DNA from: a phage
Sequence record: NC_135731.1
Strand: one strand, 5' to 3'
DNA length: 64,000 nucleotides
Shown: piece by piece, positions 3,290-35,532 of the stretch
Layout of the letters: each line of letters starts with the position of its first letter
Position numbering within the stretch: position 1 is the first letter of the stretch
Translations under genes and position numbers: made by a program
Notes under the pieces: model-generated
Told to the model about the DNA's origin: nothing
Seen by the model: only the letters and a program-made list of their open reading frames with translations
The model's database searches: none

Positions 3290-4280
3290 ACAGACAGGAT
3301 TATCGAATCCTTATATTCAAAGGTGGTCGCAACACCACCCTCCGCACCATTACGTGCTGCTGCATGTTACCATGCAGAGTAGACTATATCACCACCCATC
3401 TCAGGGTGCTTCGCTTTTCGAGCGCCATAAGCTTGCGCCCTACTCCCTCTCGGGATAGTCGTTGAACTACATTACCAATCGTAATTGTTTGAAATATAGG
3501 TGTAAGTCTTACGGTCTTTTATTCCTTTAACAACACTAAAACTTACTCCCCACTTCTTAGCTATTTTATTTACACACAAAACCCTATCACTAAGATCCTC
3601 GCAGATACCTATTATCTTGTGCTCACTTATCCTATTAGAGGTTGGCACTTTTCTAAAGTTAAACTCTTTAGAAATATCTGGGTATACTGAGCCATTCTTT
3701 ATACCACTTACAAGTGGTTGATTGACACCAAACATTTCACAAATGTCTTTTACCCTTGCACCTTGCTCTAACAGCCTACATATTTCAAGAGCAGTGGCAT
3801 CATCTAGGGACCTGTATTTATTGACATAGTCCTTTTTAAGTCCCATTTCATGAGCGTGATGTGTGTTTTCCTCAGGCGTTGTCCACTCAAGGTTCCATGC
3901 GGCGTTATTCAACTTATTACCATCCAGGTGGTTTACTTGAGTTTTCACGCTGGGATTATCATTATCAACAAAAGCCATAGCGATAACTCTATGGACTAGC
4001 ACTTGGAACTTTTTCCCGCCCTCGCACAAAGTGACCATAGCATAGCCAGTCTTTTTCTGCACATTAGGATGGAGGAATTTATTAGAATACAGACTGTAAA
4101 TTCTGCCATCGTATGTAGCACAATAATGATTGTAGCCTAAAAAGCCTAAATTTCTCATTTCAAACATCTCCCTACTACAGGTTCGGAAGGGTAATTATAG
4201 CTGCTGATTGTCCGTTTAGCAATCGGATTTTCCAGCAATTAACGAAGTTATTCGACGTGCATTTCTGCACGAAGCCACTA
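3290..4280 (-). mobile_element. putative group I intron 2 in terL, carrying HNH homing endonuclease
   Basis: Non-coding GC-rich flanks around HNH ORF; 3' core motif ccatgcaga..agactatatc (plus strand 3372-3395) shared with the other terL intron and, as GATAGTCTGG, with the nrdD intron; boundaries approximate. Confidence 0.5.
3472..4167 (-). CDS. HNH homing endonuclease (intron-encoded)
   Basis: HNH_3-type motif VHRVIAMAFVDN...VNHLDGNKLNNAAWNLEWTTPEENTHHA; located between terL exons. Confidence 0.8.
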   Translation of the reverse strand: MFEMRNLGFLGYNHYCATYDGRIYSLYSNKFLHPNVQKKTGYAMVTLCEGGKKFQVLVHRVIAMAFVDNDNPSVKTQVNHLDGNKLNNAAWNLEWTTPEENTHHAHEMGLKKDYVNKYRSLDDATALEICRLLEQGARVKDICEMFGVNQPLVSGIKNGSVYPDISKEFNFRKVPTSNRISEHKIIGICEDLSDRVLCVNKIAKKWGVSFSVVKGIKDRKTYTYISNNYDW

Positions 4281-4571
4281 TCATTTAATGGTTGCGCCTA
4301 TGAACGAGAATGACAACGGTCTTGGCTTGATCTCTACACCCAGTCCGTTAACCGTGGTGTATTTCTCTATCAACTCTTCCTTAGAGTCTCCCCAAATAAA
4401 TTCACCGTCGCGTCGGATAAAATATCTTTTCTTACCGCATTTTTCCGGATCTGGATACCCTTCATCGTCCAACCACCATCTAACCAGTTTGGCAAGCATG
4501 TGTTCTGAATCGGGGTTACAGCTGATAACCATTCTTGATGGATACTTTGACTGAGATCGCAGACGAGACAT
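4281..4571 (-). CDS. terL: terminase large subunit, middle exon
   Basis: SRMVISCNPD...LVRWWLDDEGYPD typical of terminase middle region; frame open upstream to about 4607; true splice junctions not determined. Confidence 0.55.
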   Translation of the reverse strand: MSRLRSQSKYPSRMVISCNPDSEHMLAKLVRWWLDDEGYPDPEKCGKKRYFIRRDGEFIWGDSKEELIEKYTTVNGLGVEIKPRPLSFSFIGATIK

Positions 4572-5484
4572 CAGGTAGTCTATCTGCTCCCATTCGAATT
4601 GTGTCGTTTATGTTCAGGCAAGGTCGCTAGTCTTGCCCCGCCATTTTCAGGCAGCTGCATGTCTCCATGCAGACCAGACTATATCTTATGAATGTGTAAA
4701 TACTCTGCCGCTCTAAGAATAGTTTCCTCATCTTCTTGGAAGAAACCTAAAGCTCTGTTGCATTTATCACAAAGCAACCCTCTTACAGCACCAGTTTTAT
4801 GGTCATGATCAACACAAAAGAAATCTCTGTACCCTTGCGTCCTATACTCATCGAGAGATATTCTACAAATGGCACACTTATGATCTTGATCTGAGAGTAG
4901 ACGATAGTATTCATCTTTTGTTATGTGAAATTTCTTCTCAATCTGATAAAACTTTTCACACATCTTACACCTGTTCGTAACCAGATATACTTTACCATAG
5001 TCACGTTTTGTGTAAAAACTATCAGCGAGCATACTTTCATGACAAGATTTGCATTCAAAAAGTTCACCTTTCTTCAGCAAGTCTTGAATAAATAATGCTG
5101 CGTCATCTCTCTTAACCATATTTTTGTTTTTACGAGATCCACCCTTCCTGTAGTACATATAGCATTCCTTGCATGTACCTGAGTATCCATCCTTGCTCTT
5201 AGATGATAAAAAGAAATCATCAATAGGTAGAACTCTTTGGCAATCCATACATTTTTTAGTATTACACATTCATCCTCCCGTTTCGAATCGCTTGATTCTA
5301 CGTCTTTCGACTAGTCGTTGAACGTTCATCCTCTCGGATGCTTCGCTGCGGATTATCTAAATTAACACACTGTTACCATACCTTCGATCTCTCTTCGAAG
5401 CCTCTATTATGTTACCATAGCAGGTTGGTGGTGTCAATAATAAAGATTTCCCCGCAATTAGGGAGGTTTTACGAGAGCTACAAA
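4572..5484 (-). mobile_element. putative group I intron 1 in terL, carrying EndoVII-like homing endonuclease
   Basis: Non-coding flanks around nuclease ORF; shared motifs gatatagtctgg and agactag (minus sense) just downstream of the ORF stop; boundaries approximate. Confidence 0.5.
4679..5269 (-). CDS. endonuclease VII-like (zinc-binding) homing endonuclease, intron-encoded
   Basis: Signature CVDHDHKTGAVRGLLCDKCNRALG matches the DHDH-TG-RG-LC-CN core of T4 endonuclease VII family; additional CxxC pairs. Confidence 0.75.
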   Translation of the reverse strand: MCNTKKCMDCQRVLPIDDFFLSSKSKDGYSGTCKECYMYYRKGGSRKNKNMVKRDDAALFIQDLLKKGELFECKSCHESMLADSFYTKRDYGKVYLVTNRCKMCEKFYQIEKKFHITKDEYYRLLSDQDHKCAICRISLDEYRTQGYRDFFCVDHDHKTGAVRGLLCDKCNRALGFFQEDEETILRAAEYLHIHKI

Positions 5485-5913
5485 TTAACCCTCATCGAAG
5501 CAAACCATGGTATACTCAAGCCCCTGGTGGTTAAGCTTATCTTGTACATACTCCATATGGCAGTATTTTACAACAGCTCCCTTTTTGCTTCTATCCCACT
5601 TACCAGTGTTCGGATCAAACCGTGGAAAAATGAACTTATGATCCTTCTCTCTGAACTTTGGCTTAATGTTTTCAGGCAGATCACTATAAATAGCTACTGC
5701 TTTAGGCCATAGTCCACCCTCACCTTCCAACTGTGGGGTTGTTCTTCGGAACATAACCACAGAACTATGGGGGTCATCAATAATTTTAAGTGGCATCAAC
5801 TGCAAGAGGAACGACTTGCCAGACCCTGCGGCACCGCCGATTACCAAAATATCTGCATCGTTTTCTAGGATCATCTTCTGCTTTTCAGAACACGGTCCGT
5901 AAATCTTAGACAT
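5485..5913 (-). CDS. terL: terminase large subunit, N-terminal exon (ATPase)
   Basis: Walker A VIGGAAGSGKSF; ends ...MVCFDEG (Walker B-like) immediately before in-frame stop, as expected at a group I 5' splice site. Confidence 0.65.
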   Translation of the reverse strand: MSKIYGPCSEKQKMILENDADILVIGGAAGSGKSFLLQLMPLKIIDDPHSSVVMFRRTTPQLEGEGGLWPKAVAIYSDLPENIKPKFREKDHKFIFPRFDPNTGKWDRSKKGAVVKYCHMEYVQDKLNHQGLEYTMVCFDEG

Positions 5914-7016: not shown

Positions 7017-7093
7017 TGGTCTCCACGGAGTGATTCGAACACTCGACCTCCTGATCCCAAATCAGGCGCTCTACCAAGCTGAGCTACGCGGAG
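7017..7093 (-). tRNA. tRNA-Pro (anticodon UGG)
   Basis: Minus sense CTCCGCGTAGCTCAGCTTGGTAGAGCGCCTGATTTGGGATCAGG...GTTCGAATCACTCCGTGGAGACCA; cloverleaf hand-folded, anticodon loop TTTGGGA, encoded CCA. Confidence 0.7.
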
Positions 7094-7104
7094 TATTTAT
7101 AATT

Positions 7105-7179
7105 TGGTGGCCCTGGGTGGAATTGAACCACCGTCTGGCGATTATGAGTCGCTTGCTTGAACCTTCCAGCTACAGGGCC
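7105..7179 (-). tRNA. tRNA with CAU anticodon (Met, fMet or Ile-lysidine)
   Basis: Minus sense GGCCCTG...anticodon loop CTCATAA...GGTTCAATTCCACCCAGGGCCACCA; acceptor and T-arm pair well, D-stem weak. Confidence 0.6.
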
Positions 7180-7180
7180 A

Positions 7181-7256
7181 TGGTGCTGATGGCAGGACTT
7201 GAACCTGCAACCTATTGATTACAAATCAATTGCACTACCAATTGTGCTACATCAGC
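7181..7256 (-). tRNA. tRNA-Thr (anticodon UGU)
   Basis: Minus sense GCTGATGTAGCACAATTGGTAGTGCAATTGATTTGTAATCAAT...GGTTCAAGTCCTGCCATCAGCACCA; all four arms fold. Confidence 0.75.
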
Positions 7257-7262
7257 AAAAAG

Positions 7263-7360
7263 GTGCTAGGTGATGGAATCGAACCATCTATGTATTCAAC
7301 GACTACCTCGTCTATTTTCAGGATTAAAAATCCTCGCCCTTGCCAAAGGGCTTACCTAGC
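7263..7360 (-). tRNA. atypical tRNA-like element (about 98 nt; anticodon unresolved, possibly UUU)
   Basis: Perfect acceptor stem GCTAGGT/ACCTAGC, D-arm GCCC..GGGC and T-arm GATGGTTCGATTCCATC, but about 31 nt lie between anticodon stem and T-stem and CCA is not encoded. Confidence 0.35.
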
Positions 7361-7458
7361 TCAGTATGTTGACCATGTTGCTAGTCGGCGATGACGACTG
7401 TAACATTTGATAATCCGGTTCTGCTTCCGGCTTTCGCTTAATTACAAGGCCAACAATG

Positions 7459-7549
7459 TGGCGGAGAGTAATGGAATCGAACCATCATCGAGTCATCCTC
7501 AATGGGACGGTTTTCAAGACCGCTTGAGCACCATTGCTCCCTACCCTCC
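7459..7549 (-). tRNA. tRNA-Ser (anticodon UGA), type II
   Basis: Minus sense GGAGGGT...anticodon arm GCGGTCTTGAAAACCGT...long variable arm...GGTTCGATTCCATTACTCTCCGCCA; 91 nt; anticodon arm matches E. coli tRNA-Ser(UGA). Confidence 0.65.
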
Positions 7550-7663
7550 TTTATAAATTATACTGATAATGACACTGATTTTCGAGCAGTTAGTGACTAG
7601 TATAAACGACGATAAATATCAATGCCATTATCTGTATTATTTATGCATCTAAAAATATAAATT

Positions 7664-7750
7664 TGGTGGGGAGTGGTGGAGTCGAACCACCCGAGTCGCA
7701 ATGACAATAGATTTACAGTCTACACCGCTACCTCTACGGGATAACTCCCC
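7664..7750 (-). tRNA. tRNA-Tyr (anticodon GUA), type II
   Basis: Minus sense GGGGAGT...TAGACTGTAAATCTA...GGTTCGACTCCACCACTCCCCACCA; 87 nt; anticodon loop CTGTAAA. Confidence 0.65.
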
Positions 7751-7754
7751 AATT

Positions 7755-7829
7755 TGGCACCCCGTACTGGACTCGAACCAGTGTCAACGGCTTAGAAGGC
7801 CGCTGCTTTATCCACTAAGCTAACAGGGT
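7755..7829 (-). tRNA. tRNA-Arg (anticodon UCU)
   Basis: Minus sense ACCCTGTTAGCTTAGTGGATAAAGCAGCGGCCTTCTAAGCCGT...CTGGTTCGAGTCCAGTACGGGGTGCCA; A1:U72 acceptor pair. Confidence 0.6.
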
Positions 7830-30207: not shown

Positions 30208-31296
30208 ATGGCTGTATTTAATGCTGAGAACACCGCTCATAAAACTGGTGACTATCCGCTGTTTCTAGGACAGCAAATGGGTATGTACGACTCTATTAAC
30301 AAAAAATATCCACAACTGTTCGAACTGTACAAAAAACAAAAAGAACAAGACTGGGCAGAGGATGAAGTGGATTTGTCGCAATCTATTTCAGATTTTGTAA
30401 CATGCTCCAAGTCAACTTATGACGTGATGGTGCAAACCTTGATGTGGCAATGGGAGGCTGATAGCGTTGCGGCAAGATCGATCATCTGCCTCTTTTCACC
30501 ATTCATCACTAATAGTGAGCTTTTCACTCTATTGATGAAACAGTCGGAGATTGAAGTTCTTCACGCACTAACTTACTCAGAGATTGTTAGACAATGCCTC
30601 CCCAATGCCCGTGAGATTATAGAAGAGATTCAGGAAAACCAAAACGTTCTGAGCAGATCCGGCGTTATTGTCAAATACATGCAAGAGCTTGAGGTTATTG
30701 GTGCAAAATATCGATTGGATCCTTCTAGTGTTGAAGAAGATACTGTGCGGAAATGCATTCTTAGAGCGCTTTTTGCACTTTTAGCTCTAGAAAGTATTGA
30801 GTTTATTGCAAGTTTTGCATGCACTTTCGCAGTAGCTGAGCAAGGTATTTTTGTTCAAGTGGCACAACTTGTTCAAAAAATTATGCTTGATGAAATGCTG
30901 CATTCGAAAGGTGATTTTGCTATCATCGATATCCTGCTTGATGATCCTGCATGGGAGCAAAGCTTCCTTGAGATTAAGGGTGAGTTAAAAGAAATTCTTG
31001 ACGAAGTGCGGACCAAGGAGTACGGTTGGAGTGACTATATTTTCAGCGAAGGAAGAGCGATTATAGGTCTTAATTCACCGTTGCTTAAAGAATGGGTTGA
31101 CTATAACTGCTCACCGATTTATGATTATTACGACATCGACAAAGACTTTGTGCCGCCAACAAAAGACCCGCTACCGTTTATGCAGGTGTGGATGAAACCC
31201 TCACTGCAACAGACGGCTAACCAGGAAATGTCTAACACAGACTACCGCGTCAACACAACCGTTAACGACGCTGAAGAAGAAATTTGGGAGTTTTAA
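30208..31296 (+). CDS. nrdB: ribonucleoside-diphosphate reductase beta subunit
   Basis: 362 aa ORF immediately after nrdA; ferritin-like helices with conserved E/H positions; synteny. Confidence 0.7.
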   Translation: MAVFNAENTAHKTGDYPLFLGQQMGMYDSINKKYPQLFELYKKQKEQDWAEDEVDLSQSISDFVTCSKSTYDVMVQTLMWQWEADSVAARSIICLFSPFITNSELFTLLMKQSEIEVLHALTYSEIVRQCLPNAREIIEEIQENQNVLSRSGVIVKYMQELEVIGAKYRLDPSSVEEDTVRKCILRALFALLALESIEFIASFACTFAVAEQGIFVQVAQLVQKIMLDEMLHSKGDFAIIDILLDDPAWEQSFLEIKGELKEILDEVRTKEYGWSDYIFSEGRAIIGLNSPLLKEWVDYNCSPIYDYYDIDKDFVPPTKDPLPFMQVWMKPSLQQTANQEMSNTDYRVNTTVNDAEEEIWEF

Positions 31297-31299
31297 TAT

Positions 31300-31578
31300 A
31301 TGAGCTGCGAAAAATCTTTTTTCATCATCATTTACGGTAAGGATAACTGCCCACATTGTGTAAGAGCAAAAGAATTTGCAGTCAGCAAAGGCATACCTTT
31401 CGTATACAAGACGCTAGGTGAAGGATATACAAAAGAAGAGCTTATCGAGAAGTGTAGCCCATTTGTTCCCAGAACGTTGCCTCAGATTTTCTTAGAAAGC
31501 GACCTTGACAGTGTCCATATCGGAGGTGCTGACGATTTCATCTCTTTTGTTAAGAATGGTTTTGGAGAGAAAAAGTGA
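31300..31578 (+). CDS. glutaredoxin/thioredoxin-like protein (NrdH/NrdC-like)
   Basis: CPHC active site in YGKDNCPHCVRAKEF; 92 aa; between nrdB and nrdD. Confidence 0.65.
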   Translation: MSCEKSFFIIIYGKDNCPHCVRAKEFAVSKGIPFVYKTLGEGYTKEELIEKCSPFVPRTLPQIFLESDLDSVHIGGADDFISFVKNGFGEKK

Positions 31579-32438
31579 AAGTTGTAAAACGGGACGGTAG
31601 AGAAGAGTTTTATAACGGAATTAAGGTGATCAAGGCGGCAGAGTCCGCCTTACTTGAGTCTGGACATACTGAAGAAGAAGCTTACCGGATTGCCTGCGCG
31701 GTTAATGAAGTTGTTGCCAATAATCTGCCAACCGACCAGTGCACGATTTCTGTAAAAAATATCCATATCCTTGTTGAAGATGCTCTTATGGATATGGGTT
31801 TAAAATGTGCAGCCCGAGAATACATCCAGTATAGACAGACAAGAGATAATAACAGAGAGGCAGGTGGAAAGCTGCTTGCAGATATTAGTGGCTTCTTGGA
31901 TCGTACTTGTGATGAATTTACAAAAGAAAACGCAAATAAGCCTACTAATCATGTACACACTCATCGTGACCTGCTTGCAGGCATCCTTAGCAAACACCTT
32001 GCGTCAACACAGATCCTGCCAGATCGTGTCTCAGAAGAGCACAACAAGGGCTTCATCCATGTGCATGATCTTGACTACTTGATCAGTCCGTTAACAAACT
32101 GTTGTTTGGTAAATTATCCGGATATGCTGGAAAACGGATTCAACATTGGCAACGCCCATGTCAGTAAGCCGAAGTCAATAGGGGTTGCAACAACAATCCT
32201 TAGCCAAATCTCTAGTGCAGTAGCTAGTGCTCAATATGGCGGTCAGACCATGAGCCATATTGATCATTATCTGGCACAGTATGCTGAAGCAACCTATGAG
32301 AAGAACCTTAAATTTTGTCAGGAACATTGGTTGCCAGATGCTGAGACTGTTGCAATGCAAATGACAGATAAAGACGTGTTTGATAGTATGCAAACTTTGC
32401 TCTACCAAATCAATACGTTAACTTCTGTCAACGGTTAA
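31575..32438 (+). CDS. nrdD: anaerobic ribonucleoside-triphosphate reductase, 5' exon
   Basis: ATP-cone VVKRDGREEFYNGIKV; FIHVHDLDY block; GTG start; ORF ends at stop where intron-like insertion begins. Confidence 0.7.
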   Translation: MKVVKRDGREEFYNGIKVIKAAESALLESGHTEEEAYRIACAVNEVVANNLPTDQCTISVKNIHILVEDALMDMGLKCAAREYIQYRQTRDNNREAGGKLLADISGFLDRTCDEFTKENANKPTNHVHTHRDLLAGILSKHLASTQILPDRVSEEHNKGFIHVHDLDYLISPLTNCCLVNYPDMLENGFNIGNAHVSKPKSIGVATTILSQISSAVASAQYGGQTMSHIDHYLAQYAEATYEKNLKFCQEHWLPDAETVAMQMTDKDVFDSMQTLLYQINTLTSVNG

Positions 32439-33286
32439 CAAACTGGCCGTTGTAAAACTCTCCTAACCTCATAAGAGGGGTCGGTAAATCCGGCTAACGG
32501 GGAACGCTAAGGCGAAAGCTATGCCAATCCCGTGACTAGTTCTTACAGGAGTTGGAACGGTTGTAACGACTAACGAAAGGCAGAGATGCTTGACAAACAT
32601 TTCTGAACCAAGTAGTGTAGGGGTTAGTTGAAATACTAACTTCGAAATGGAGAGGCTCTATGAAAAAGATCATTCTTAATGGTGAAGAATCAAACTATGT
32701 GATTGATGAGGTTGGAAACGTATACGGAAAACGTGGAATGCTACACCCAATATTGTGGGGAGGTTATGGAAAAGGTAACAAGCATGTTAAACGCCGTTAT
32801 ATGTACTCTTTCAACCACAAAGGTAAAAAGATTCGAATCCAAACCTCAAGGATTGTTGCCTTGTATTGTTTGCCAGATGTCCCAGAAGACCCTGAAAACT
32901 GGGAAGTGAATCATAAAGACGGCAATACATTGAATGATCATCCGTCTAACCTAGAGTGGGTTTTGCCGGAAGATAATAAGAGACATGCTTTCCGAACAGG
33001 GCTTTGCCCAGGTAAGTGCTATAGGAAAGTGCAGGCATACAAAGGGAAAACCTTGGTTGGTGAATATCCTTCACTCTATGCCTGTGCAAAAGCCTTAAAT
33101 TTGAACGTAGGTAACGTTCATAGGGCTATCGAAGGAAATGCCGAAGGTAAGCATCTCACAATAAAGGGTTATTATCTTATTGAAGTAGAGTAAGAGATAG
33201 TCTGGCCCTGTGGAAACACAGGGAGGAGACAGCAGACTCCATTCATCACATTAAGTTTAGGTCTGGACACCTCAGTATTTGGTAGA
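32439..33286 (+). mobile_element. putative group I intron in nrdD, carrying HNH homing endonuclease
   Basis: About 220 nt structured non-coding 5' segment, HNH ORF, then 3' segment with GATAGTCTGG...CAGACTC shared with terL introns; boundaries approximate. Confidence 0.55.
32660..33193 (+). CDS. HNH homing endonuclease (intron-encoded)
   Basis: HNH_3 motif VNHKDGNTLNDHPSNLEWVLPEDNKRHA; 177 aa. Confidence 0.8.
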   Translation: MKKIILNGEESNYVIDEVGNVYGKRGMLHPILWGGYGKGNKHVKRRYMYSFNHKGKKIRIQTSRIVALYCLPDVPEDPENWEVNHKDGNTLNDHPSNLEWVLPEDNKRHAFRTGLCPGKCYRKVQAYKGKTLVGEYPSLYACAKALNLNVGNVHRAIEGNAEGKHLTIKGYYLIEVE

Positions 33287-34495
33287 ATGATTACCAAAAA
33301 CTACTTGAAAGTCCACAAAATGGGTCTTGGTGAAGAACGTATCACACCTGTGTTCCCTAAAGTGCTGTTCTTCCTAGAAGAGGGTGTCAACATGAACCCT
33401 GGAGATCCTAACTATGATTTGAAACGATTAGCTCTGGAATGCTCTGCAGAGCGGATTTATCCTGACTTTGTTTCTGTTCCACTAAATCGTAAAGTGACAG
33501 GCTCGACAGATGGCAAAGTAACGAGCATGGGTTGCCGGAGTTTTCTTAGCAAATACAATGACTTGGAAACAGGTGAGGAGAAATACCTCGGCAGATTCAA
33601 CTTGGGTGTTGTTAGTCTTAACCTACCAATGATTGCGGCAAAAGCTAAGACGGAAGGTGTTGATTTCTTTGCCGTTCTTGACGAATACCTGGATCTTGCA
33701 TACGAGGCTCACCTTGTAAGGGTTAACCGTCTAAAAGGAACAAAGGCAGGGCAGAACCCTATCATGTGGTGTGAAGGCGCTCTTGCTCGCCTGGATCCTG
33801 AAGAGAGTATTGATAAACTCTTCTATGACGGGTACGCTTCCATCAGTATTGGGTATATTGGTGTGTATGAAACCTGTCAGATTTTGGGCAGGGAGGGTGA
33901 CAAGGCTTTAGCTCTTGGAATACTCCAGCACATGAGAGATGCTTGTGAGCGATACAAGAAGGAAAGTGGACTAGCATTTAGCTTGTACGGAACCCCTTCT
34001 GAGAGTCTATGCTATAAAGCTGCAACCTGTCTGGATCGTGAATATCCTGAAGTGTTGAAGCACGAGCATGAATATCTCACCAACAGTTTCCATCAGCCAG
34101 TATGGATCAATAGCTCTCCTTTTGATAAGTGGAAGTATGAGGAAGGTTTTGCTATGATCTCCTCTGGTGGCAACATCGGATATGTAGAGACACCAAATCT
34201 GAAAAACAACTTAGATGCTTTAGAGGCTCTTGTTGACTTCGGGTATAAACACATTATGTATTTTGGTATTAACCAACCTGTGGATAAATGTCTCAAGTGT
34301 GGTTTCTCTGGTGAGTTTAGTGCAACAGCTAAAGGCTTTGTATGCCCAGAGTGTGGAAACCATGAAGAGGGAACGATCAGTGTAATTCGACGTGTGTCTG
34401 GATACCTTTCCAGTCCTAACTCCCGTCCTTATAATAAAGGTAAGCAAGCGGAAGTTATCGAGAGAGTTAAGCACTATGGAAGTTGTAGTTGCTGA
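33287..34495 (+). CDS. nrdD: anaerobic ribonucleoside-triphosphate reductase, 3' exon
   Basis: Glycyl-radical motif RRVSGYL and C-terminal zinc ribbon CLKCG...CPECG; frame open upstream to 33194, exact exon start undetermined. Confidence 0.75.
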   Translation: MITKNYLKVHKMGLGEERITPVFPKVLFFLEEGVNMNPGDPNYDLKRLALECSAERIYPDFVSVPLNRKVTGSTDGKVTSMGCRSFLSKYNDLETGEEKYLGRFNLGVVSLNLPMIAAKAKTEGVDFFAVLDEYLDLAYEAHLVRVNRLKGTKAGQNPIMWCEGALARLDPEESIDKLFYDGYASISIGYIGVYETCQILGREGDKALALGILQHMRDACERYKKESGLAFSLYGTPSESLCYKAATCLDREYPEVLKHEHEYLTNSFHQPVWINSSPFDKWKYEEGFAMISSGGNIGYVETPNLKNNLDALEALVDFGYKHIMYFGINQPVDKCLKCGFSGEFSATAKGFVCPECGNHEEGTISVIRRVSGYLSSPNSRPYNKGKQAEVIERVKHYGSCSC

Positions 34496-34826
34496 TACTT
34501 GACAAAAGCCACAAGGATGTGGCATATTATTGACACACAGCGAGCTAGGAGGTACAGTATGTCTAAAGGTATTTATAAAATTTGCAAGTGTGGTTGTCGT
34601 TGCAATCTTCGTTGGTGCAAGGCACTGGACGATTTTATTTGGCATTGTCCTGAATGCGACGCGGAGTACTTATAAGCATAAGGGGTCGAAATGCGGAAAT
34701 CTATCAAGAAAATCAAGATAAAATTGTTAGCACTGAAGCGTAAGTATAAAAAGTTATACGGCTTCATCAAATGGACTTTTATAGGTCTATCTTGAATAGA
34801 AGCGCACCACAGAAGAGAGGTTCCTT

Positions 34827-35072
34827 ATGATAGGTGTCTGTGTAAAAGCTAACAGATGGTTTACACTCGGTAAGGATTACGAAATTATCTTTCATTCGGA
34901 CAGAGCCACAACAGTAGAAAGCGATGATGGGTGCTACTGGTTCGTTAGTTACCATGGTGATGGGTATTATAGATCTACCGATTCCAGAGGGGAAGAAGCT
35001 GTTTTCTTAGATCGAGCTTATTGTGGCCTGAATATCCCTACCTCAAAGAGGATAAGGAATGAATGTTGTTAA
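34827..35072 (+). CDS. hypothetical protein
   Basis: 81 aa ORF between nrdD and nrdG. Confidence 0.35.
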   Translation: MIGVCVKANRWFTLGKDYEIIFHSDRATTVESDDGCYWFVSYHGDGYYRSTDSRGEEAVFLDRAYCGLNIPTSKRIRNECC

Positions 35073-35532
35073 TATTATAGAGTGTAGTATGGTTGACGGC
35101 CCAGGCATTAGGACAACGGTGTTCTGTTCTGGTTGCCCACATCACTGCGTCGGTTGCCAAAACAAAAGTGTTTGGTCACCAGCTAAAGGGGAACCGTTAA
35201 CAAATGACACTATTGAGAGTATACTTCACTCTGTAGAGCCGAAACATATTACTGGCGTTACATTATGCGGTGGCGAACCTTTAGCGCCTTATAATATTGA
35301 TGGTATGTACTCGATTATTCGCGCTATCCGTGAACGCTTCGGCAACACAAAAACTATCTGGGTGTACACAGGGTATTTGTTTGAAGAGGTTCCCGATCAC
35401 ATTAAAGATAGTGTCGATTACATTATGGATGGTAAGTACGAGAAAGATAACCCAACCAAAAAACCCTTCAGAGGTAGTGATAACCAAAGAATGTTTAAAA
35501 AGACAGCAGGCGGTTGGGTTCAGGTTGACTAA
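35059..35532 (+). CDS. nrdG: anaerobic ribonucleotide reductase activating protein (radical SAM)
   Basis: DGPGIRTTVFCSGCPHHCVGCQN cysteine cluster; 157 aa. Confidence 0.8.
   Translation: MNVVNIIECSMVDGPGIRTTVFCSGCPHHCVGCQNKSVWSPAKGEPLTNDTIESILHSVEPKHITGVTLCGGEPLAPYNIDGMYSIIRAIRERFGNTKTIWVYTGYLFEEVPDHIKDSVDYIMDGKYEKDNPTKKPFRGSDNQRMFKKTAGGWVQVD

Follow-up and report, generated by a model that had tools for sequence, protein, structure and literature searches.

A probable mobile group I intron encoding an I-HmuI-like HNH endonuclease interrupts nrdD in an rV5-like coliphage

Overview

The nrdD gene in the 64,000-nucleotide stretch of phage DNA analysed here (the window, 100% identical to the rV5-like coliphage phiWec196) is, with a probability that we put at about 0.88 from sequence comparison, interrupted by a group I intron of the phage type IA2 that is mobile, splices itself and carries the gene of an I-HmuI-like HNH endonuclease. 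An earlier sequence-only reading had proposed an HNH-bearing group I intron at this place, and the proposal is sustained by the exact joining of the exons, by a ribozyme core with covariation and by the presence/absence polymorphism of the element among related phages.

Reading frame of nrdD across the insertion

The first open reading frame of the gene (31575..32438) terminates, as had been read from the letters, at a TAA codon (32436-38) and matches the Pfam ATP-cone and NRDD families; exon 1 comprises the ATP-cone and the N-terminal NRDD domain. The second frame (33287..34495) matches Pfam NRDD and Gly_radical, and exon 2 holds both the Cys loop SMGCRSF (33524-33544) and the anticipated glycyl-radical motif RRVSGYL (34388-34408). 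Exon 2 in fact begins 54 nt before the ATG at 33287, which makes the residues QTPFITLSLGLDTSVFGR part of NrdD; the bases CAGACTC are the first of this exon. An insertion is present as proposed, although its length is 797 nt and not 850 nt, the latter value being the gap from one open reading frame to the other.

Joining of the exons yields a NrdD of 707 aa that could be aligned end to end with the T4 enzyme (1H78, E=2.5e-168) and also with 9D3X, in both cases free of gaps at the segment tsvNGQTPFitl. The junction is located between the codons of Gly287 and Gln288, within the conserved motif NGQTPF (NG|QTPF), and the predicted ligated sequence reads ...GTCAACGGT|CAGACTCC... (AACGGU|CAGACU). The joined-exon construct matched intronless Vequintavirus alleles over 400/400 nt in a single match, and the nrdD of phage LL12, intronless and 707 codons long, is annotated from a start equivalent to that of exon 1. 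Excision of the insertion thus gives back one conserved continuous NrdD frame, with the exons contiguous on T4 NrdD and on the alleles of sister phages, in agreement with the sequence-only reading.

Table 1. Coordinates of the nrdD exons, the intron and its structural elements in the window.
Feature	Coordinates	Strand	Remarks
nrdD exon 1	31575..32435	+	GTG start overlaps glutaredoxin stop; ends ...AAC GGT
P1	32429..32452	+	exon CAACGGU 32429-35 with internal guide GCCGUUG 32446-52
Group I intron, 797 nt	32436..33232	+	starts with in-frame UAA, ends with omega-G 33232
P3 5' strand CUCUCC	32458..32463	+	pairs with GGAGAG 32649-54
hpA and hpB	32467..32494	+	hpA 32467-70 with 32475-78; hpB 32480-84 with 32490-94
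P4-P5-P4' (ACGGGG AA ... CAA UCCCGU)	32497..32533	+	J3/4 UAA just 5'
P6 hairpin GUUCU/GGAAC	32539..32558	+	
P7 5' strand GACUA	32568..32572	+	J6/7 GUAAC just 5'; pairs with UAGUC 33198-202
P7.1 and P7.2	32579..32643	+	P7.1 32579-32609; P7.2 32620-28 with 32635-43
P3 3' strand GGAGAG	32649..32654	+	doubles as Shine-Dalgarno of the HNH ORF
P8 5' strand GCUCUA	32655..32660	+	pairs with UAGAGU 33186-91; its final base doubles as the A of the HNH start codon AUG
HNH homing-endonuclease gene, 177 aa	32660..33193	+	occupies the P8 loop
P8 3' strand 33186-91, J8/7 AAGAGA 33192-97, P7 3' strand UAGUC 33198-202	33186..33202	+	
P9 hairpin CCCUGUG GAAA CACAGGG	33206..33223	+	
nrdD exon 2	33233-34495	+	begins CAG ACT CCA (QTP)

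Architecture of the ribozyme core

The limits of the intron are set by the intronless alleles (AACGGG|CAAACT), which leave no possibility of sliding, and its 3' end (...GAGACAG|CAGACU) shows the terminal guanosine. A U32435•G32446 wobble, read from the sequence, is placed at the 5' splice site within P1, and a possible P10 could be formed between CUG 32443-45 and CAG 33233-35 of exon 2. All core helices could be placed in the window copy, with every core pairing intact (Table 1).

Comparison of 10 homologues showed P3, hpB, P4 and P7 to be 100% paired, with eight pairs changed on both sides, and the resulting covariation score was matched by none of 500 shuffles. P3 is paired in 10/10 of these homologues, with two-sided changes at five of its six pairs, and the 5' strand of P7 is invariant in 10/10 sequences. 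Over the full structure, pairing reaches 94.6% in six independent IMG/VR relatives, where 27 pairs show two-sided changes; the P4-P5-P4' motif is common to 42 IMG/VR loci. With respect to an ORF-less variant of the intron (see below), the P6 stem presents compensatory differences (GCUUCAC/GUGAGGC in the variant), P9 has CCUUGUG/CAUAAGG as its counterpart, and P7.1 is of ~10 bp, compared with 3 bp in the ORF-less form. The placement of P7.1 and P7.2 between the 5' strand of P7 and the 3' strand of P3 is the feature that defines subgroup IA2.

Several other assignments were considered and rejected. A P3 formed with the 3' strand of hpB, as in the Infernal alignment, is limited to 3 bp and lacks conservation, whereas CUCUCC/GGAGAG covaries in all the homologues; the first GACUA (32535-39) was discarded as 5' strand of P7 in view of the GUAACGACUA that relatives keep at the second position; and a promoter-like TTGACA-N17-TAGTGT in P7.1 was not reported by the promoter scan and matches three of the six positions of the -10 hexamer.

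A two-hairpin insertion between P3 and J3/4

In the canonical models of group I introns, as in the Rfam model, only a 3-nt joiner separates the 5' strand of P3 from J3/4. Here that strand is not joined directly to P4 by a short J3/4; hpA and hpB, both backed by covariation across the members of the intron family, lie between P3 and the UAA. These hairpins are placed outside the canonical group I topology and are the one unusual feature of the intron. They are present neither in the T4 nrdD intron nor in the Listeria LP-114 intron, both of which have the direct P3-J3/4 join, and our search of the literature on extra P3-region hairpins in group I introns found no relevant description.

The presence of hpA and hpB causes the RF00028 model to mis-assign P3, and explains the low scores of this intron family in Rfam. 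The Infernal scan did match RF00028, with 27.7 bits (E=9e-5) for the window copy and 29.8 bits (E=6.8e-6) for the ORF-less allele, but both values are below the gathering score of 50 bits; at the gathering threshold the scan returned tRNAs only, the group I matches appearing only at E-value thresholds. More tentatively, and with the balance against it, these introns may constitute a sub-class of IA2 for which we found no description, characterized by a conserved GAA-hpA-GU-hpB-UA module, common in uncultivated phages, found among isolates mainly as this Vequintavirus intron, and transferred, HNH gene included, between rV5-like and T4-like phages at a single nrdD site.

The HNH endonuclease gene

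The open reading frame inside the intron encodes the HNH endonuclease that had been expected there, with a Pfam HNH_3 match of 29.3 bits (cut-off 24.8) and a motif region that reads ...VNHKDGNTLNDHPSNLEWVLPEDN. A match to the I-HmuI NUMOD-like Pfam family (18.4 bits) is under its cut-off of 27. Among solved structures, that of I-HmuI (1U3E) alone was matched at E<0.001, in a weak alignment (E=2.7e-4) that nevertheless covers residues 8-160 of 177 against residues 8-159 of 174. No close relatives came up in IMG/VR when the HNH protein was the sole query, and a profile of two HNH sequences gave at least three HNH loci, all of them distant among the matches listed; no use was made of either outcome.

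The AUG of this gene is located 5 nt downstream of GGAGAG 32649-54 and its UAA stop spans the end of P8 and J8/7. The overlap with P8 and J8/7 could in principle hinder folding. Since the ribosome binding site coincides with the 3' strand of P3 and the AUG lies in P8, folding of the ribozyme and translation of the HNH protein should exclude each other.

Alleles in related phages and mobility

About 120 related records were compared, of which roughly 80 are intronless, 14 contain an ORF-less intron of 257 nt at the identical site and 27 contain the HNH-bearing form. The junction reads GGG|CAA in the intronless alleles (7/7), GGT|CAG in the HNH-bearing ones (3/3) and GGT|CAA in the ORF-less ones, so that T at position -1 is seen in intron-bearing alleles only, with G in its place in the intronless. 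Each allele class has its own exon-flank haplotype. The ORF-less alleles differ from the window by 11-12 extra changes within ±30 nt, all in codon third positions, as are all the differences between alleles within ±60 nt of the junction; from phage to phage the exons are 94-96% identical overall. Related genomes therefore present polymorphism of the element at a single site together with a signature of flank co-conversion. The intron itself matches that of phage WalterGehring at 792/797 positions (99.4% identity), with exon identities of 96.3% and 96.0%, and this excess of identity in the intron fits recent homing. In addition, the T4-like IMG/VR contig L040 contains a homologous ribozyme with a 46%-identical HNH protein at the NG|Q site.

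It is improbable, if less so than the readings discussed below, that the intron splices while its HNH protein no longer homes, being inactive or a helper of splicing, and that the alleles reflect vertical descent and ordinary recombination. The defective intron HNH I-TevIII of T4 (PMC2988022) is a precedent, and the persistence of ORF-less alleles would agree with it. However, the protein is 98.9-100% identical across the 27 records and keeps its likeness to I-HmuI over nearly the full length, the identity of the intron relative to the exons is that expected for recent lateral spread, and an HNH homologue occupies the matching site in a different phage family, all of which speaks against this reading.

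A decayed element, with a ribozyme that splices poorly or not at all and an nrdD that is effectively a pseudogene, is very improbable: the low Rfam score, the enlarged P7.1 and the ORF that overlaps P8 and J8/7 point in its direction, but the exons carry neither frameshifts nor stops, differences around the junction are confined to third positions, nrdG is intact downstream, no core pairing has been lost, and the allele is retained at 99% identity in ~27 independently isolated phages. Equally hard to sustain is a gene split by a free-standing HNH gene, whose halves would be translated separately and assemble as is reported for the nrdA/mobE of Aeromonas phage Aeh1 (PMC7344957, PMC3653736); both halves of nrdD are intact reading frames and the Rfam score is under the gathering threshold, but the second half has its first ATG (33287) 18 codons into conserved NrdD, which would cost it QTPFITLSLGLDTSVFGR, the insertion has a full ribozyme core backed by covariation, a free-standing endonuclease does not explain the ORF-less version in 14 records, and U is fixed at -1 solely in the alleles with the insertion.

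Proposed mechanism

For the mobile intron preferred here, the anatomy of the core suggests that the pre-mRNA would fold into the ribozyme, in which an external guanosine in P7 would attack after U32435, which its U•G wobble with the internal guide holds in P1. The 3'-OH of exon 1 would then attack after G33232, joining the exons into an mRNA for the 707-aa NrdD. The in-frame UAA formed by intron bases 1-3 would halt ribosomes at the splice site. When an rV5-like phage with an intronless nrdD infects the same cell, the HNH protein is expected to nick or cut that gene close to where the intron inserts, and repair off the intron-bearing copy would transfer the intron, and with it a short stretch of exon flank, to the recipient.

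Relation to the terL introns of the same genome

The sequence-only reading had assigned the nrdD intron to the same family as two terL introns of the window on the basis of its 3' segment. The likeness of this segment (AGATAGTCTGG at 33195-33205) is real, GATAGTCTGG in the nrdD intron having TAAGATATAGTCTGG as its counterpart in terL-A, and all three introns are IA2-like with P7.1/P7.2. Beyond the subgroup, however, the nrdD intron has in common with those of terL only a core segment of 15 nt (TAAGAGATAGTCTGG, the single blastn match, E=0.18), which corresponds to the near-universal J8/7-P7 consensus of group I introns. The two terL introns match each other over 35 nt at 86% (E=4e-7) and have P4 and J6/7-P7 segments in common. 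The endonuclease cargos do differ as described (I-HmuI-like HNH in nrdD, HNH_3 plus HTH in terL-B and EndoVII-type in terL-A). Because the three introns are of separate lineages, their co-occurrence in one genome is no proof of spread between sites, and the claim of active spread drawn from it is not upheld; the evidence of mobility comes from the comparison of genomes.

Significance

In the phiWec196 record the three ORFs of the nrdD region appear as hypothetical proteins, and the annotation should read as one spliced nrdD with an intron-encoded endonuclease. The nrdD intron adds a further case of a mobile intron in a conserved ribonucleotide reductase motif, a pattern known since T4. Modestly useful are the homologous intron with its HNH gene at the matching site of a T4-like phage, the explanation of the Rfam under-scoring by the P3-J3/4 hairpins, and the coexistence of intronless, ORF-less and HNH-bearing alleles in one genus, a natural series that could serve for work on the gain and loss of homing-endonuclease genes.

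Comparison with known systems

I-HmuI, encoded in the DNA-polymerase intron of Bacillus phage SPO1, is like the window protein a product of a phage group I intron, but the similarity is weak and host gene and target are different. I-HmuI is a strand-specific nickase.

The T4 nrdD (sunY) intron shares with that of the window its host gene, an IA2-type core and the placement of P7.1/P7.2, and its P4-P6, J6/7-P7, GAAAC-P3' and J8/7-P7 segments are very close to those described here. It is mobile and encodes its own endonuclease, I-TevII (PMC2988022). Its insertion site, however, is 32 nt upstream, in the Tyr codon of AYE|YEV instead of at NG|Q, and the endonuclease it carries, 3' of P9, is of the GIY-YIG type, whereas the HNH gene of the window intron lies in P8.

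The terL introns of rV5 (Kropinski et al. 2013, PMC3606486), copies of which are present in the window, likewise belong to Vequintavirus; they too are group I introns of the phage type, have P7.1/P7.2 and contain endonuclease ORFs, and the ORF of terL-A is also placed in P8 and also extends into J8/7-P7. They differ in a P4 of the UUGCGGGG type and in the lack of hpA/hpB, the P4-P6 of the nrdD intron being of the td/sunY type.

In Aeh1 a ribonucleotide reductase gene is likewise broken by an HNH gene; there is no ribozyme and no splicing in nrdA/mobE, and two polypeptides assemble, in contrast with the full ribozyme core of the window insertion.

BASEL Vequintavirus genomes such as WalterGehring (MZ501111) and AlexBoehm (MZ501048) have the same intron at 99% identity. 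The nrdD intron is already annotated in their GenBank records, where a join of two pieces represents nrdD, the ORF inside is called a 'putative homing endonuclease' and the boundaries were assigned by comparative genomics (Maffei et al. 2021, PMC8594841). Their treatment stays at the level of annotation and includes neither a structure model nor data on splicing or cleavage. The nrdD start in these records is 213 nt downstream, and the ATP-cone is thereby omitted.

The nrdD gene carries an HNH-bearing group I intron

The interruption of nrdD (anaerobic ribonucleotide reductase) by an HNH-carrying group I intron, proposed by the sequence-only reading, is real and is borne out by the joining of the exons, the ribozyme core and the HNH_3 match. 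The ORF at 31575-32438 encodes the ATP-cone and NRDD up to profile position 154 (Pfam); the ORF at 33287-34495 resumes the profile at position 180, follows it to 562 and adds the Gly_radical domain, with RRVSGYL at 34388-34408. Between these halves, ORF 32660-33193 matches Pfam HNH_3 above the cut-off, and the motif AGATAGTCTGG is found at 33195-33205; all items named in that reading were located in the sequence.

A query joining 32435 to 33233 (200 nt per side) matched the intronless Vequintavirus alleles over 400/400 nt as a single piece. At the junction these alleles read ...GTCAACGGG|CAAACTCC... and the window reads ...GTCAACGGT[797 nt]CAGACTCC...; because the flanking bases at each boundary differ, the boundary cannot slide, and the intron occupies 32436-33232 (797 nt). 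Aligned over its whole length to T4 NrdD (1H78, E=2.5e-168) and to 9D3X, the spliced protein (707 aa) runs ungapped through ...tsvNGQTPFitl... in either case, and therefore the comparison with intact NrdD does not speak against the intron. The nrdD gene of the intronless phage LL12 is uninterrupted (707 codons) and begins at the same GTG, which overlaps the stop codon of glutaredoxin. BASEL records (L001, L003 position 514) begin nrdD 213 nt downstream of GTG 31575, a start that leaves out the ATP-cone domain (Pfam E=4.4e-14), while the LL12 annotation uses the longer one.

The finding is correct but ordinary, being already on record. In GenBank records of the BASEL collection nrdD is annotated as a join of two pieces around a putative homing endonuclease, the ORF-less form likewise appears there as a join, and comparison was used in the BASEL paper to set intron boundaries (PMC8594841). 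FFH2, FV3 and other records name an 'H-N-H homing endonuclease' ORF between two nrdD fragments. Splicing and homing are very likely; no experiments on this particular intron were found among the searchable papers.

Over the 2.9-kb nrdD region, identity reaches 100% with Escherichia phage phiWec196 (LC739542.1) and 95-97% with many rV5-like phages (genus Vequintavirus). About 20 GenBank records titled 'Campylobacter phage' (MG0656xx, with C. jejuni as host) share 95-99% identity across nrdD with rV5-like phages of E. coli; this points to wrong host labels in that data set or to its contamination by coliphages. The small ORF downstream of nrdD encodes 58 aa with a CxxC...CPEC spacing; this spacer varies among relatives, with a 38-aa ORF in AlexBoehm and an additional 993-nt putative homing endonuclease gene in WalterGehring. 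Elsewhere, a tRNA gene cluster (7020-7829, minus strand) includes a match at 7264-7360 with a ~26-nt insertion after the anticodon arm, and two stretches (7463-7549 and 7668-7750) scoring best as tRNA-Sec yet below threshold; these are probably long-variable-arm tRNAs.

Features of the nrdD neighbourhood, the nrdD intron core and the terL introns
Feature	Position	Strand	Remarks
nrdB	30208-31296	+	
glutaredoxin	31300-31578	+	
nrdD	between glutaredoxin and small ORF	+	
small ORF	between nrdD and nrdG (34499-34675)	+	
nrdG	35059-35532	+	
P1	CAACGGU 32429-35 with GCCGUUG 32446-52		U32435•G32446 at splice site
P10 (possible)	CUG 32443-45 with CAG 33233-35		
P3	CUCUCC 32458-63 with GGAGAG 32649-54		
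P4-P5	32497-32533		
P6	32539-58		
P7	GACUA 32568-72 with UAGUC 33198-202		
P7.1	32579-609		
P7.2	32620-43		
P8	GCUCUA 32655-60 with UAGAGU 33186-91		
J8/7	AAGAGA 33192-97		
P9	33206-23		
terminal G	33232		
terL intron A	~4655-5487	-	Rfam 47.6 bits
terL intron A ORF	4679-5269	-	Endonuclease_7 (Endonuclease VII) type; in P8; stop codon is UAG of P7 3' strand
terL intron B	~3360-4297	-	Rfam 34.9 bits
terL intron B ORF	3472-4167	-	HNH_3 + HTH; in P6

Ribozyme structure and covariation

A group I scan of the window gave a match to Rfam RF00028 at E=9e-5, although the score (27.7 bits) stays under the gathering score of 50, as does that of the 257-nt ORF-less allele (29.8 bits, E=6.8e-6). Every core element could be placed by hand. 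Between the P3 5' strand and P4, members of this intron family carry two hairpins, hpA (32467-78) and hpB (32480-94), followed by UAA. Both covary, and the module GAA-hpA-GU-hpB-UA (32464-32496) is conserved also at seven further loci (L010, L013, L016, L032, L041, L045 and L008); at this position, canonical group I topology and the Rfam model provide for a joiner of just 3 nt. The Infernal alignment puts a wrong P3 on hpB, a probable cause of the low Rfam score.

Scanning IMG/VR for the P4/P4' pattern returned 42 loci; the introns from isolated phages that stand closest to the IMG/VR members are those in Vequintavirus nrdD. When six ORF-less relatives taken from unrelated contigs are aligned, pairing over the full structure is 94.6%, with both sides changed at 27 pairs and a covariation score reached by 0/500 shuffles. 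A second alignment added four nrdD-site introns: that of L040 (an IMG/VR contig), two ORF-less variants from Vequintavirus, and the window intron, from which the P8 loop and the greater part of P7.1 were trimmed. Here P3, hpB, P4 and P7 are paired in 220/220 cells and both sides changed at 5/6 P3 pairs. Hand-trimming, partly steered by the structure model, biases both alignments in its favour. Sliding the 3' partner by 1-3 columns lowers pairing in the six-relative alignment to 36-44%, and these controls argue that the covariation signal is real.

The endonuclease and its placement

The 177-aa intron protein aligns over residues 8-160 with I-HmuI (PDB 1U3E, E=2.7e-4) and combines Pfam HNH_3 with a weak I-HmuI NUMOD-like match. 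Its ORF occupies the P8 loop. The Shine-Dalgarno GGAGAGG is the P3 3' strand, the AUG overlaps the P8 5' strand and the UAA spans the end of P8 and J8/7, and because of these overlaps ribozyme folding and endonuclease translation may compete. The P7.1 hairpin has ~10 bp in the HNH-bearing intron vs 3 bp in the ORF-less one. Inside the enlarged P7.1, just 5' of the HNH gene, lies TTGACA-N17-TAGTGT (32590-32618), which might be a promoter brought in with that gene; a promoter scan did not report it, and its -10 hexamer is weak.

Allele distribution and mobility

Among ~120 related records, ~80 are intronless, 14 have the 257-nt ORF-less intron and 27 the HNH form, all of these numbers including RefSeq/GenBank duplicates. 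The HNH protein is 98.9-100% identical across all 27, the next-best phage matches being at ~32%. Compared with WalterGehring, which bears the HNH form, the window is 99.4% identical in the intron (792/797), 96.3% in exon 1 and 96.0% in exon 2. Against the ORF-less AlexBoehm, the shared ribozyme parts are less identical (86-88%) than the exons (94-95%), and therefore the two intron forms are separate lineages and not the outcome of a recent ORF loss. The flanks read GGG|CAA in intronless alleles (7/7), GGT|CAG in HNH-bearing ones (3/3) and GGT|CAA in ORF-less ones, these last with 11-12 further changes relative to the window within ±30 nt, all at third codon positions. Such allele-sorted haplotypes look like co-conversion tracts. 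The T at position -1 of the intron-bearing alleles is the base needed by P1.

In L040 (IMGVR_UViG_3300033120_000502), a T4-like uncultivated phage, the NG|Q site of nrdD likewise carries a homologous ribozyme, with a 46%-identical HNH in P8 (reverse strand, ~3540-4300). The same contig has a second HNH-bearing intron (~4580 onward, reverse strand), which follows ...SPMG and immediately precedes the active-site Cys. Some Vequintavirus genomes (phita32, L002; JEP1; 'Campylobacter phage C2'; navn, L005) carry a second nrdD insertion (~760 nt, 170-aa ORF) in the active-site Cys loop SMG|CRSF, at a site matching that of the second L040 intron; the equivalent window position (33532-33542) is free of it.

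Comparison with the terL introns and with known systems

The minus-strand terL has three exons and two group I introns, the three segments of rV5 terL having been reported (PMC3606486). By blastn, terL introns A and B show similarity to one another, and the nrdD intron has just TAAGAGATAGTCTGG, the general group I consensus, in common with them; thus the proposed common family is right only insofar as all three are phage-type, IA2-like group I introns, and not as a recently shared origin. The nrdD and terL-B HNH proteins are 38% identical over the 68-aa catalytic region. Co-occurrence of three introns in one window, taken earlier as active spread, is not by itself proof of spread.

What remains of modest interest is the hairpin module between P3 and J3/4, together with the natural allele series. 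A literature search found no description of the two-hairpin feature, the specialist literature being outside its reach. The P4-P6 sequence type of the window intron recurs in the T4 nrdD intron and in the DNA-polymerase intron of Listeria LP-114, but both show the canonical layout, with P3 joined directly to J3/4. The T4 intron, as read from the T4 genome, has a parallel layout (...GAAAC GGCAGA [P8] AAGAUA UAGUC UGAAC [P9]...), but is located 32 nt upstream of the window intron's site and carries a GIY-YIG enzyme; the P9 of the terL introns, CUGCAUGG(A/U)(G/A)ACAUGCAG, is almost identical to the P9 of this T4 intron.
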